A DNA stretch of 64,000 nucleotides. Source: Octopus vulgaris (taxonomy: Eukaryota). The stretch's first letter is position 1, and each line of letters opens with the position of its first letter. A program made the translations under genes and the position numbers. The stretch lies in assembly GCA_951406725.2 (NCBI GenBank), contig OX597816.1, positions 98,394,001 to 98,458,000 of the forward strand. Direction: 5' to 3'. The notes under the pieces were generated by a model. The model made no database searches and had not been told where the DNA came from. It worked only from the letters and a program-made list of their open reading frames with translations. Shown in pieces: positions 1 to 58,325 of the stretch.

Positions 1-16
1 TGTATATATATAATAG

Positions 17-266
17 AAGGCCAGCATTCGCCCATGCATAGAAGCCTCCCCTCTCCACATCACTGGTGTTATCCAAGGCAAAGGCAAAGGCCAATACAGC
101 TTGACACCAGTGATGTTGCAACTCATTTCTACAGCTGAGTTAACTGGAGCAACGTGAAATAAAGTGTCTTGCTCAAGAACACAACACGCAACCCAGTCCG
201 GGAATCGAACTCACAAGCTCGCGGTCGTAAGCTCGACGCTCTAAACATTGAACTATGCGCCTTCAC
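17..266 (-). mobile_element. tRNA-derived SINE (family A)
   Basis: Minus strand reads GGCGCATAGTTCAATGTTTAGAGC (A-box-like), GTGAGTTCGATTCCC (B-box), then TTGAGCAAGACACTTTATTTCACGTTGCTCCAG core shared with the copy at 43786. Confidence 0.85.
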
Positions 267-465: not shown

Positions 466-543
<78 letters not shown>

Positions 544-645
544 TCGGGGTGAGTACTTGATAATTATAAGCACCTGTGTATACCGTTTGGTGGTGTAGGT
601 GGTGGAGTAAATTGATCAAAATAAAAACATGATGCGAAGGATTCA

Positions 646-723
646 GCGGTACATATGTTTCGGGCCTTTATTAGACAGATTTATAACAATGCATAATGTA
701 TGTCTGTGGCCTTCTTCAGCCGC
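646..723 (-). ncRNA. Type I hammerhead ribozyme (left-arm copy)
   Basis: Reverse complement of the 1032-1109 motif. Confidence 0.75.
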
Positions 724-1031
724 GCACAACAGCTTCCACAAGGACATGTGTTACATCAAAAATTCTTGGTTGGGGATGCAAATCCTCTCATTCGCGTACG
801 ACATAATTCGGCAGCAGCATAGAATTGAAGCGTCCATCTCTTTCTTCTCTCTTCACACACATCCAAGGCTGTTTGACAGATTCTATTTGACAGATTCTAC
901 ATTGAGAGAAGAAAGAGATGGACGCTTCAATTCTATGCTGCTGCCGAATTATGTCGTACGCGAATGAGAGGATTTGCATCCCCAACCAAGAATTTTTGAT
1001 GTAACACATGTCCTTGTGGAAGCTGTTGTGC

Positions 1032-1109
1032 GCGGCTGAAGAAGGCCACAGACATACATTATGCATTGTTATAAATCTGTCTAATAAAGGCCCGAAACAT
1101 ATGTACCGC
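1032..1109 (+). ncRNA. Type I hammerhead ribozyme, minimal palindromic helix III
   Basis: GCGG-CUGAAGA-A-GGCC...GGCC-C-GAAA-C-AUAU-GUA/CCGC; stem I GCGG:CCGC, stem II GGCC:GGCC plus ACAGA:UCUGU; predicted cut after 1105. Confidence 0.78.
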
Positions 1110-1136
1110 TGAATCCTTCGCATCATGTTTTTATTT

Positions 1137-1174
<38 letters not shown>

Positions 1175-1620: not shown

Positions 1621-1655
<35 letters not shown>

Positions 1656-1835
1656 AAAGGGCTTAGTAAAATAAATTACTTCGCCGCATACTGAACTCAT
1701 TAGAAATAGCAGCTAAAAAACTTTTTAAAGCTATTTCTAATACTTAAAGAAAATCTCTCTCATATATAGCGTTTGCTTAATTTAACTCACAAAAGTTTGG
1801 GGTAAGGACATTAAAAATCAAATGCTAAGGTTATT

Positions 1836-1887
1836 TGAGTACGTACGTTTCAAGATTAGTCAAAACAACATTTCTCTCTTCAGCTCA
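1836..1887 (-). ncRNA. Type I hammerhead ribozyme copy 1
   Basis: Minus strand: UGAG-CUGAAGA-GAGA...UCUU-GAAA-C-GUAC-GUA/CUCA. Confidence 0.82.
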
Positions 1888-2378
1888 TAAATTCTTGGTT
1901 TGGATTTGGAAACACTGAAAGTAAGAACATACCCTTTCGAAGATCCGCTCTTAACTAACAGTGCCAGCAAACCCAAATAAGCAAGTGAATCATTTCTGTT
2001 CTCCCTTTCCACCAGCGTGGGTTAAAATCATCAAACGCTATGCTTATTTCGGTAAAATCCGAAGCAATAATTAGAGGGAGATTAATTATAATTTCAACAA
2101 TTGAGGGTAAAATTAATTAATTATTAATCAATTTCACCAAGTGTTCAGTATGCAAAGGGACCATTTAAGGCGAATTCAAATTATTACATTATATAAAAGG
2201 GCTTAGTAAAATAAATTACTTCGCCGCATACTGAACTCATTAGAAATAGCAGCTAAAAAAACTTTTTTTAAAGCTATTTCTAATACTTAAAGAAAATCTC
2301 TCTCATATATAGCGTTTCCTTAATTTAACTCACAAAAGTTTGGGGTAAGGACATTAAAAATCAAATGCTAAGGTTATT

Positions 2379-2430
2379 TGAGTACGTACGTTTCAAGATT
2401 AGTCAAAACAACATTTCTCTCTTCAGCTCA
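2379..2430 (-). ncRNA. Type I hammerhead ribozyme copy 2
   Basis: Same motif, 543 nt from copy 1. Confidence 0.82.
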
Positions 2431-2434
2431 TAAA

Positions 2435-2486
2435 TGAGCTGAAGAGAGAAATGTTGTTTTGACTAATCTTGAAACGTACGTACTCA
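2435..2486 (+). ncRNA. Type I hammerhead ribozyme copy 3
   Basis: TGAG CTGAAGA GAGA...TCTT GAAA C GTAC GTA CTCA; predicted cut after 2482. Confidence 0.82.
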
Positions 2487-2978
2487 AATAACCTTAGCAT
2501 TTGATTTTTAATGTCCTTACCCCCAAACTTTTGTGAGTTAAATTAAGCAAACGCTATATATGAGAGAGATTTTCTTTAAGTATTAGAAATAGCTTTAAAA
2601 AAGTTTTTTAGCTGCTATTTCTAATGAGTTCAGTATGCGGCGAAGTAATTTATTTTACTAAGCCCTTTTATATAATGTAATAATTTGAATTCGCCTTAAA
2701 TGGTCCCTTTGCATACTGAACACTTGGTGAAATTGATTAATAATTAATTAATTTTACCCTCAATTGTTGAAATTATAATTAATCTCCCTCTAATTATTGC
2801 TTCGGATTTTACCGAAATAAGCATAGCGTTTGATGATTTTAACCCACGCTGGTGGAAAGGGGAGAACAGAAATGATTCACTTGCTTATTTGGGTTTGCTG
2901 GCACTGTTAGTTAAGAGCGGATCTTCGAAAGGGTATGTTCTTACTTTCAGTGTTTCCAAATCCAAACCAAGGAATTTA

Positions 2979-3030
2979 TGAGCTGAAGAGAGAAATGCTG
3001 TTTTGACTAATCTTGAAACGTACGTACTCA
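2979..3030 (+). ncRNA. Type I hammerhead ribozyme copy 4
   Basis: Same motif; predicted cut after 3026, 544 nt from copy 3. Confidence 0.82.
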
Positions 3031-3311
3031 AATAACCTTAGCATTTGATTTTTAATGTCCTTACCCCCAAACTTTTGTGAGTTAAATTAAGCAAACGCTA
3101 TATATGAGAGAGATTTTCTTTAAGTATTAGAAATAGCTTTAAAAAAGTTTTTTAGCTGCTATTTCTAATGAGTTCAGTATGCGGCGAAGTAATTTATTTT
3201 ACTAAGCCCTTTTATATAATGTAATAATTTGAATTCGCCTTAAATGGTCCCTTTGCATACTGAACACTTGGTGAAATTGATTAATAATTAATTAATTTTA
3301 CCCTCAATTGT

Positions 3312-3366
<55 letters not shown>

Positions 3367-3796: not shown

Positions 3797-3837
<41 letters not shown>

Positions 3838-4905
3838 ACACATCCAAGGCTGTTTGACAGATTCTATTTTCTTCGACTGGCTAACACGACAACTGAACAA
3901 AAATATCGTTAGCTTCACAACTTTTGGATCTCTCATATATGTCAACCATCGTAGAGAAACACCTCTTTCTTTTTCATTTCTTCTTACGTCTTTCTTTCTG
4001 TCTTCTTTTTTCTCTCTAACCAAGCTTCCAAAAATCGCTCGCACACATATATACACATGCACATATAGACATAGATTTATACACACATAAATACATTCGA
4101 AATAAAGTATATCTCAAAAACTCCCAAAACATCCTCTTTCCAAAGCCGAAGGAAACAGACCGAATTCCATATATTTTCAAGTATCACACATATATATCAA
4201 AGTTATGATTTTTGTATAAATATACCACTAATGATGCATCTCTCAAAAGAAATGAGAGCGCAAATTAAATAATCTTTATCCAAATCATGACTATTTTTAC
4301 TTAATATATAAAATCTGTACAGCACTTCATTCAAACAATCTAATGTGCATATCTATGCATGCACCCATCCATTAGTCCATACATATATGCGTACACATAC
4401 ACATTGACACATTTATGCATATATATTACACCTCGTGTGTATAGGTAGTTGTACGACTGTTAGTGTTTAGTTTAAAGTACTACGTAATCATAATCTTGTC
4501 TGGTTTATGCTATTAGTGTAGTGAGTCGTATTACAATTATGATGTTCAGACTAAGCGTAAGAGCAATTACGATAATCACATGTTAGTATCATTTGTTCCC
4601 ACCAACGTTTCCCATTTTGATTCGTTGGGACGCTACATTGAATAATCCGAGAGCAGCTGTTCAAAGTGCATATAGACGCTTAACAACAATAGATAATTGG
4701 TGGGCACTATATCCCTTTATGAACAAATTTCTCTTGAGAATTTTTCTCTGTAATATAATGCAAAATAGTGGATCCCGAAGATTTGCTGTGGTTAAGAGTC
4801 CAATTGTCCTTGCAACATCCAGTATATAGTTCCAAACAAACATACGCGATCGGGAATCGTACGTAGGAACAAGGGATATAAACTTTTGTTTTATGTAATT
4901 CTATA

Positions 4906-44159: not shown

Positions 44160-45370
44160 GGTTAGTTCCGTAGTGAAACGAAAAACGTAAGAAATTGCTT
44201 TTTGAGAGACAAAGAAGAGTAACCTCTACTTACGTAATTCAAGCTAATGAACGATGACATAAGAAAGGTATTCCCTCTTTTATTATGGCGTAATAACTGT
44301 GAAATAATTTCATGTTTTAAGGCAAACCATAATAGAGGCAGAGCAAGTTTCATCCAATTCGATATAGTGGACTTTTACTCATCCACATTGAGAGGGCACA
44401 TATTTTCGAAAAACATTTGCAGGCGTTACACATAGGGCTAAACAAGCAATAATACGCGCCAGCAAAATACCCGCTATTCAACAAAAAAACTGACTCTGAA
44501 TGCTCGAACACACCCAGTACAGAGAAAGGAACAGATTCACTAAATTAACTCCCTTGTTCAAGGATTCGGTCGGCCTTTGCTTTTAAGGTTGCATATGTGA
44601 CCAACTTTAACATAGTTATAGTGTTACCACTGATCTGGGCATCGGTCCATACAAGCTCGATGGCTAAACTATATCAAAGGCTTTCCTATATCAACATAGT
44701 CTCTTGCCATTCGCTTATAGTCTTTAAAACCTTGTGAAGTGTGCCAAGAAAAAGATTTTGAATCTATCCACCAAAAAGTACATTATTTCCATGAATCTCT
44801 GTCAGCCAGCTGATTTAAGTACCGCATCACCTAAATGCCGGGATATAGCACCTCCAAAAGAAAACGACGCCCTTATGTCTTATCAGTTTCGCTACCTTTC
44901 TATCTCATCGTCAAAATCTGCGTGAGAAGGGCCTTCCTTAAATTAGTAGACAAGCAATCCACACATTTCTATCCACATGGTCCTGTTCGATTGTGCATCT
45001 AGTGTAAAAAACATATTAGTGAACGCTCCCCAAGGACGTGCAGTGGCAGGATGCCTATGTAGGTTTAGAAGTGGGGGATGTGCGAATAGCAAAAACAATA
45101 CTGAGACCCTGTTCTACGATGCAGAGATGGTGTCCAAAATTATCAGCAGTAATCGTGGCAAGAGCGACATATATCACACACGGAAATATGTTAGAGATAC
45201 GGATAGCCAATTTAAAACCAGGCCAAATAGCCACAGGTCTTCTTTTAGCATACCAAAGGGGAGCAACGTTTTAATATTAGTCAGTTATATATGGCGACAA
45301 GTAGAGGAGTGAGGGTCGTATAAATCGGACCAAATTCTGCTGGAACAACCCGCGTTATATGCGAGTGTTA
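44160..45370 (+). mobile_element. Penelope-like element (Naiad-like) relic: RT to GIY-YIG
   Basis: WRNNCEIISCFK..ASFIQFDIVDFYSS (RT motif A); YINIVSCHSLIVFKTL; CLCR..TETLFYDA..RKYVRDTDSQFKTRPNSHRSSF..LVSYIW. Confidence 0.8.
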
Positions 45371-57949: not shown

Positions 57950-58325
57950 TATAATATGGCCAGAACCCTCATCTTCAGGTTATACGCTCGTATGGCATAT
58001 GGAAGCTGAGACAGGACGATAGAATGAGTGAAAATACAAGAAAAGTCGAGAAGAAAGTAGATGTCAAAGGTGGAAGGCTGCAAACGCAGTTATAATATTG
58101 ACGGTATTGCTCGAATATTTCTTTACTGGCAGATAGGGATGTGATCCTGTTAAGATACGCTATGATGGATTTTAGGACAGATGGGGAGTGATTGGCAGAA
58201 AAGTGAACAGAGTTAAGGTTTTTACCGGGTTTTTACGGGAAGATTGTGCTGTTTTGTAAATTTAGTGTAACATCTAGGAAATTAAGTATTTTGATACTGT
58301 AACTAAAAGCTACGCACAGACCTAG
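57950..58325 (-). mobile_element. PLE (Naiad-like) RT C-terminal fragment
   Basis: KILNFLDVTLNLQNSTIFP*KP..VHFSANHSPSVLKSII..RITSLSASKEIF; CCTGAAGA lies downstream at ~57973-57980. Confidence 0.78.

Follow-up and report, generated by a model that had tools for sequence, protein, structure and literature searches.

Head-to-head insertion of a 5'-truncated Penelope-like element in Octopus vulgaris, with a probable origin in priming at two internal sites of one RNA

A foldback between two (TA)n tracts

We analysed a 64,000-nucleotide stretch of the Octopus vulgaris genome (assembly GCA_951406725.2, contig OX597816.1, positions 98,394,001 to 98,458,000), called the window below, and all coordinates are positions in it. 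At 466-1172 there is a foldback that sits between two (TA)n tracts. Its parts, together with the host sequence that recurs at its centre, are the following, where PLE stands for Penelope-like element and pLTR for its pseudo-LTR.

466..538, no strand: (TA)n target tract, left flank
539..614, - strand: PLE 'tail', 76 bp between two inferred priming sites
615..851, - strand: left (tailed) arm, pLTR / 3' end of the element
646..723, - strand: left-arm type I hammerhead motif, with its cut predicted after 650
852..893, + strand: junction filler, 42 nt
894..1140, + strand: right (untailed) arm, ending at priming site 1
1032..1109, + strand: type I hammerhead motif of the right arm, A.C at 10.1/11.1, predicted cut after 1105
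1141..1172, no strand: (AT)n target tract, right flank
3835..3869, + strand: host donor of the filler, 2,981 bp away

As the earlier note on this DNA had described them, the inverted arms 615-851 and 904-1140 are exact complements, pairing from 615/1140 to 851/904 over 237 bp with zero mismatch, and the roughly 75 bp that it had seen as extra on the left arm are 76 bp of element-derived sequence (539-614). The arms are separated by a spacer of 52 nt (852-903), and two of its features had been missed: element sequence is also present at 894-903, and 854-888 is identical to host DNA at 3835-3869. The right arm starts exactly at a truncation hotspot of the family, the A of TCATTC (the inferred transcription start), and the left arm is truncated 10 nt short of this hotspot. 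The filler consists of TT, then the host-identical 854-888, then a re-copied GACAG, and the junction contains a 14-mer duplication (872-885/886-899). GATTCTA at 893-899 is compatible both with the host donor and with an arm start carrying an extra G. A 29-mer of the donor occurs at only two places in the 2.8-Gb genome, the donor itself and the filler. The left boundary of the insertion is ambiguous by 4 nt because TATA at 535-538 also fits the native read-through of the element; in full-length copies the equivalent of the tail continues into the 5' UTR and the ATG. Outside the foldback, window 1-262 is a dispersed repeat, SINE-like by appearance, and the flank left of the insertion matches the flank of another copy (L103) at 83% over 202 bp.

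The arms derive from the 3' end of an autonomous PLE

The genome contains 1,464 candidate places for the arm, the best of them at 99-100% identity, and longer copies lead from the arm through a 2-kb 3' UTR into an RT-endonuclease ORF. Rebuilding of the full unit from genomic copies was possible in this way, the arm copies running on into a PLE ORF of 836 aa that is intact in four fetched copies (L035-L038). Full-length copies read pLTR, hammerhead, tail, 5' UTR and ATG, and 539-614 is therefore the PLE tail; copies L036 and L122 have a pLTR-tail-ORF-pLTR arrangement, and inverted copies are present as well. The foldback is thus a 5'-truncated, head-to-head insertion of a young Hydra-clade PLE into (TA)n. 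Its identity as a PLE fragment is near certain, and the Hydra-clade assignment is suggested by motifs. The earlier note had proposed the recent insertion of a second hammerhead family, distinct from a neighbour 500 bp away. The insertion is indeed recent, with arms 100% identical and best copies at 99-100%, and it is distinct from the neighbour, the best cross-match being only 19 nt (E 0.005), but it is not a free-standing hammerhead element: the unit is the 3' end (pseudo-LTR) of an autonomous PLE.

The structural model of the 836-aa protein (pLDDT 86) has telomerase RT (TERT) as its top Foldseek match (E 5e-9); a single ORF with a telomerase-like RT is the hallmark of PLEs. Pfam detected neither RT nor GIY-YIG in this protein, and Pfam and PDB sequence searches gave the ORF no name; a weak Pfam match to Desmo_N was below the cut-off and was rejected. 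GIY-YIG scored above the cut-off in two of five homologues scanned. The ORF has a C-terminal endonuclease signature, with YIG at 730 and VIY upstream, and read by eye its GIY-YIG core has only one Cys. YRDD is present; DKT replaces DKG (ADKT in 97 of 120 homologues) and GxKF/Y is absent. CxCX5C, CxxC and CxH are found at 696, 793 and 823, with no CCHH, and RWA is found at 39, RW[KR] being present in 113 of 120 homologues. The insertion into (TA)n is a Hydra-clade trait. The comparison with published Hydra proteins was made by eye only.

Three further observations concern the proteins of this and related families. The L037 ORF has two low-confidence N/T/R-rich inserts (residues 491-544 and 637-691), which recall the N-rich inserts of rotifer PLEs (PMC3846280). 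Open frames near 980 aa occur in a sister family that is Hydra-like and shares 50-58% identity. Coding remnants of related PLE RTs, at 39-43% identity, lie elsewhere in the window at 58089-58322 (- strand) and 44259-44384 (+ strand).

The hammerhead motif

A hammerhead motif on each strand, as claimed before, was confirmed on the + strand (1032-1109) with its mirror on the - strand (646-723). On the + strand, stem I pairs GCGG (1032-1035) with CCGC (1106-1109) and is followed by the core CUGAAGA (1036-1042). Stem II pairs GGCC (1044-1047) with GGCC (1089-1092), A1043 facing C1093, and is extended by ACAGA:UCUGU (1048-1052/1076-1080). GAAA follows at 1094-1097, helix III is the palindrome ACAUAUGU at 1097-1104, and the cut is predicted after A1105. 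A long stem II and loop separate the core halves by 51 nt. The motif has the type I core CUGANGA / GAAA / NUH and three helices, with A.C in place of the G10.1-C11.1 pair. The minimum-energy fold of 1031-1111 is the hammerhead (-13.2 kcal/mol); the RNA 1025-1115, which the earlier note had put forward for a cleavage assay, has a predicted fold other than the hammerhead and a stability no better than that of shuffles (z +0.93). Rfam gave no match in the window at gathering thresholds.

Exact patterns matched 1,221 copies of the 5' half of the hammerhead and 1,916 copies of the 3' half genome-wide, with zero matches in controls, and the genome therefore holds at least 1,900 hammerhead copies of this PLE family. 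A looser core pattern, whose gap limit leaves out the window family, gave 8,698 matches in the genome versus 268 in the control, from many families and often as opposite-strand pairs. Among 30 of these hits that we inspected, helix III was palindromic in 24, and 21 were unpaired at 10.1/11.1, five of them with A.C. The A.C mismatch at the base of stem II is thus present, as the earlier note had it, but is not peculiar to this motif. The extra ACAGA:UCUGU helix belongs to the predicted fold, but by eye it is out of register in a subfamily at 84%.

A check across relatives found covariation in stems I and III: changes in stem I are compensated, and the helix III palindromes differ from one another. 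The apposition at 10.1/11.1 in relatives is A.A (84% protein identity), G.U (75%), and G-C or G.U (50-58%). A register with a bulged A, which would restore G10.1-C11.1, was set aside because A.C, A.A, G.U and G-C occupy one aligned position, so that relatives vary a single apposition. C11.1 is found in 98 of the first 100 family copies listed, a uniformity that reflects the youth of the family and not selection. In published Hydra hammerheads, read by eye, U.U is frequent at the foot of stem II (PMC8557442). Our literature search returned nothing specific on octopus PLE hammerheads or on the 10.1/11.1 mismatch.

The two hammerheads at the locus are one motif copied twice, both on the sense strand of the element, and the presence of a hammerhead on both strands is a by-product of the inversion. 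A transcript spanning the locus would carry one sense hammerhead, likely buried in the 237-bp hairpin. The motif is an ordinary PLE hammerhead, which by prediction is weak by itself and depends on a dimer or on the protein. The genome holds such motifs by the thousand, and a hammerhead of this kind, with a long loop and an A.C base, is missed by Rfam and by descriptors built for short loops.

One tail per insertion

Exactly one arm was tailed in 68 of the 69 inverted insertions, and none had two tails. These include head-to-head pairs, all 53 of them one-tailed (52 by motif, L101 by alignment), made up of 26 from chromosome C1, a further 7 and 15, 4 ORF hits, and the window insertion. The 26 and the 7 came from hammerhead-half pattern matches and the 15 from arm similarity matches; the chromosome C1 set covers 26 of the 28 pairs of this kind, without two whose width is about 10 kb. 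Pairs picked by their 5' end were one-tailed in 13 of 14 cases, L155 being without a tail. Among 20 apparent single-arm copies, two proved to have a short inverted partner, with one tail each, and the other 18 were tailed in 6 cases and untailed in 12. From these 18 single copies, an independent choice of ends would predict about 44-50% one-tailed pairs. A convergent pair with two tails (L080) was excluded from the pair counts as two insertions. Sister families and the neighbour family present the same one-tail asymmetry. Published accounts of PLEs describe the tail as optional or as often present at one end (PMC8557442, PMC3846280); we found no printed count of tail coupling in a search that did not cover older subscription papers, and Fig. 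S2 of Frangieh et al. may bear on the point.

Some ends of individual copies are recorded here as they were seen. In L011, L012, L029, L044, L077, L090 and L098 the end of the tail is separated from (TA)n by a run of (CT)n, which may reflect compound-microsatellite targets or telomerase-like stuttering at initiation. Among the untailed arms of L075, L109, L029, L041 and L155, some stop within helix III, a few nt short of the predicted cut, or in loop II; such ends could be due to priming on cleaved RNA, or merely to TA microhomology. L037 (3637-8056) is a unit-length copy in direct orientation, with priming site 1 at both ends, a terminal redundancy of about 10 nt and the tail at its 5' end, which suggests a tandem or circular template.

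Two arms apparently from one source, probably joined at the target

The tail does not go with the longer arm: in 51 pairs (L040 and L101 were left out of this count, their tails having been missed by the script) the tailed arm was longer in 24, the untailed arm in 24, and the two were equal in 3. Both arms exceed 1 kb in eight pairs. Within insertions the arms differ by 147 changes in 23,863 bp, compared with about 944 expected from other copies, in the 48 of 53 pairs with a full self-alignment (L029, L075, L081, L097 and L109 were left out). In all 14 scored pairs that share more than 400 nt, no other copy was as close. The two arms of an insertion thus appear to come from one source copy, with gene conversion as a caveat.

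The 53 junctions comprise 30 with overlaps of 1-8 nt, 10 blunt and 13 with filler. Overlap exceeds the random expectation, under which 55% would be without it (p 1e-4), and the junctions look like end-joining. The window junction has the longest filler in the set. Among the five fillers of at least 7 nt, it alone comes from outside the element, the other four copying element sequence within about 30 nt. The filler stretch 865-884 was without coverage in 4 of 4 other runs, which carries no evidential weight. On the simplest reading, the free end of the right cDNA primed on the donor, slipped once, copied the donor, and joined the left cDNA at the target. Templated copying before microhomology joining is typical of Pol theta. 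Host DNA taken from next to the target is part of this junction, which therefore did not form somewhere else beforehand.

A truncation hotspot and candidate start site

Genome-wide, 70 copies have a non-native base before the equivalent of A894, versus 12 at the next position, and 29 of 30 hotspot truncations checked are genuine. The base before the hotspot is G in 35 of the 70, about 20% being expected (p 2e-8). When 16 of the G cases were checked, 8 were clean by reading and 8, that of the window included, were explicable by the partner arm or the donor. An extra G from copying of the cap occurs in other retroelements, and our literature search found no paper on a cap-derived extra G. In full copies TATTTA lies about 30 nt upstream of the A of TCATTC; we take TCATTC to be Inr-like and TATTTA to be TATA-like.

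These results suggest that the hotspot is likely the capped 5' end of the RNA, that is, the transcription start. A pause site is an alternative, since a small hairpin (-7.3 kcal/mol) coincides with the hotspot. Counted from the putative start, the hammerhead extends from +143 to +212 and the ATG is near +411. If the hotspot is the start, the template of the window insertion was an uncleaved RNA copied from its 5' end, in keeping with the in vitro system of Frangieh et al. The upstream copy of L122 stops short of the hotspot.

Proposed mechanism and its alternatives

Reading wholly from finished insertions, we consider it probable that reverse transcription was primed by both target ends, each using a different internal site on one and the same element RNA. 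The RT-endonuclease, possibly as a dimer, would cut both strands of (TA)n. Priming by one target 3' end would then take place about 35-45 nt beyond the hammerhead cut site, and priming by the other about 111 nt beyond it; because both priming sites lie past the cut site, the template would be uncleaved at the hammerhead. In the window insertion, the untailed cDNA may have run off the capped 5' end of the RNA (894, extra G), and the tailed cDNA would have halted 10 nt before that end. Microhomology end-joining would link the two free cDNA ends at the target, after one of these ends had copied 35 nt of nearby host DNA in a Pol theta-like manner.

A more general form of this proposal, to which we give an even chance, is that a single event of obligatorily asymmetric twin priming produces both the inverted repeats and the tails of PLEs. 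One uncleaved RNA would be bound by a dimeric telomerase-like RT whose two active sites sit at fixed positions 76 nt apart; each site would extend one target end, and the host would join the cDNAs. Against twin priming on one RNA, pairs with both arms longer than 1 kb need strand displacement or a tandem or circular template; gene conversion between arms could equally make them alike, and the tailless pair of L155 goes against a strict tail rule. We found no printed twin-priming model for PLEs, and Evgen'ev and Arkhipova 2005 and Arkhipova 2006 and 2017 may hold a similar one.

The best-surviving alternative, which we regard as unlikely, is self-priming by fold-back, whether on an antisense template or on the first cDNA, after which the endonuclease would trim the hairpin and leave one tail. 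Self-priming on an antisense template has been proposed (PMC3846280), as has an endonuclease-mediated resolution for the tail (PMC8557442). Fold-back accounts directly for identical arms and a single tail, and several junctions cluster at a quasi-palindrome. However, a fold-back copy cannot exceed its template at the inner end, and in 24 of 51 pairs it is the untailed arm that is longer, by as much as several kb; the model would call for both cut polarities in equal measure. The overlap at most junctions is only 0-4 nt, and the host DNA from beside the target in the window junction argues against a pre-formed fold-back.

Twin priming could also take place on two RNAs from the same source, joined in an asymmetric complex, for example through the palindromic helix III. 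The 8 nt of this helix form a perfect palindrome (duplex -7.0 kcal/mol), its palindromy is kept while its sequence changes across families (24 of 30 hits), and long-arm pairs would be explained without strand displacement. We nevertheless think this improbable: many source copies exist, yet arms from different sources were found in 0 of the 14 long pairs scored, and two RNAs by themselves leave the constant difference of start sites unexplained.

It is very improbable that the foldback is a free-standing, viroid-like unit with a working ribozyme per polarity, or a chimera of the assembly. Exact palindromes can be artefacts of long reads, but an artefact would not yield the tail rule, host filler or a cap-like G, and the neighbour and sister families show an equal asymmetry. 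Against a free-standing unit, the arms continue into the PLE ORF, and there is no fixed foldback unit because arm lengths and junctions vary among copies. A non-LTR retrozyme, that is, non-coding tandem hammerhead units, was rejected as a candidate, the arms continuing into a coding element. The least credible reading, already disfavoured, is that of two independent insertions in one (TA)n tract later homogenised by gene conversion: the family does target (TA)n and one convergent two-tail pair exists (L080), but there is no TA tract between the arms, the junctions have short overlaps, and one tail is present in 68 of 69 insertions.

What the copies add to the known anatomy

Inverted truncated pLTRs, each with a hammerhead and with an optional tail, are an already described anatomy of PLEs; the family itself is new. 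Both Craig et al. 2021 (PMC8557442) and Frangieh et al. 2024 (PMC11167929) describe the origin of the inverted and tail structures as an open question. The value of the present case is in the population of copies, which sets firm constraints: a single tail per insertion, arm lengths without bias, a common source for both arms, joining at the target and a candidate capped start. Such copy statistics separate twin priming from fold-back models and make an open mechanism testable in vitro. If the proposal is true, the family records asymmetric twin priming at scale, and its intact ORFs can serve reconstitution.

Comparison with known systems

In twin priming by LINE-1, both target ends prime first-strand cDNA and the ends are joined by microhomology; the second priming occurs upstream, at a site that varies, and there is no overlap between the arms. 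In the window family, by contrast, both priming sites are fixed and both arms copy the same region.

The window motif is like the minimal PLE hammerheads of Cervera and de la Pena 2014 (PMC4209133), which are of type I with a short stem I and a palindromic helix III. Those have G10.1-C11.1 after an extra base, whereas the window motif has A.C and core halves 51 nt apart. In the same work, truncated PLEs carry opposite-strand hammerhead pairs 100-700 bp apart, and cleavage in vitro is low (PMC4209133). Animal non-LTR retrozymes are described as PLE-related, non-coding tandem units with a type I hammerhead (bioRxiv 10.64898/2026.07.22.740005); unlike them, the window foldback comes from the end of an element that is autonomous. 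The description of retrozymes suits the neighbour at 1650-3313 better than the foldback. Each arm of this neighbour consists of two tandem units of 544 bp, the arms stand head to head and overlap by 2 nt, and the right arm is about 92 nt longer, the one-tail asymmetry again; it is a retrozyme-like PLE derivative.

The Hydra clade is characterised by a C-terminal endonuclease, DKT, CxCX5C, CxxC and CxH, absence of GxKF/Y, and (TA)n targets (Craig et al. 2021, PMC8557442). With this clade, which includes Hydra-1_Obim and Penelope-13_HM, the window family shares those motifs, the (TA)n targets and a pLTR hammerhead, and Penelope-13_HM also has a 5'-truncated inverted copy like the window element. 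The hammerhead of Hydra-1_Obim differs from that of the window family. By eye, the protein of the window family follows the published Hydra alignment but is clearly divergent and is not that of Hydra-1_Obim. Further differences are RWA in place of the Hydra RWK, a unit of about 4.4 kb with a 2-kb 3' UTR where Hydra elements are generally below 3 kb, and a tail of 76 nt where 30-40 is usual (PMC8557442).

The closest biochemical parallel is Poseidon PAc of Anolis, a member of another clade than the window element. In vitro it cuts and extends both strands and uses uncleaved RNA, two internal RT start sites bracket the tail, the target is AT-rich, and a dimer is predicted (Frangieh et al. 2024, PMC11167929). 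Its main text does not report a coupling of the two start sites within one insertion. Unlike Poseidon PAc, the window family has an ORF that starts about 200 nt after the hammerhead cut site, and its ends often share 2-4 nt with (TA)n.
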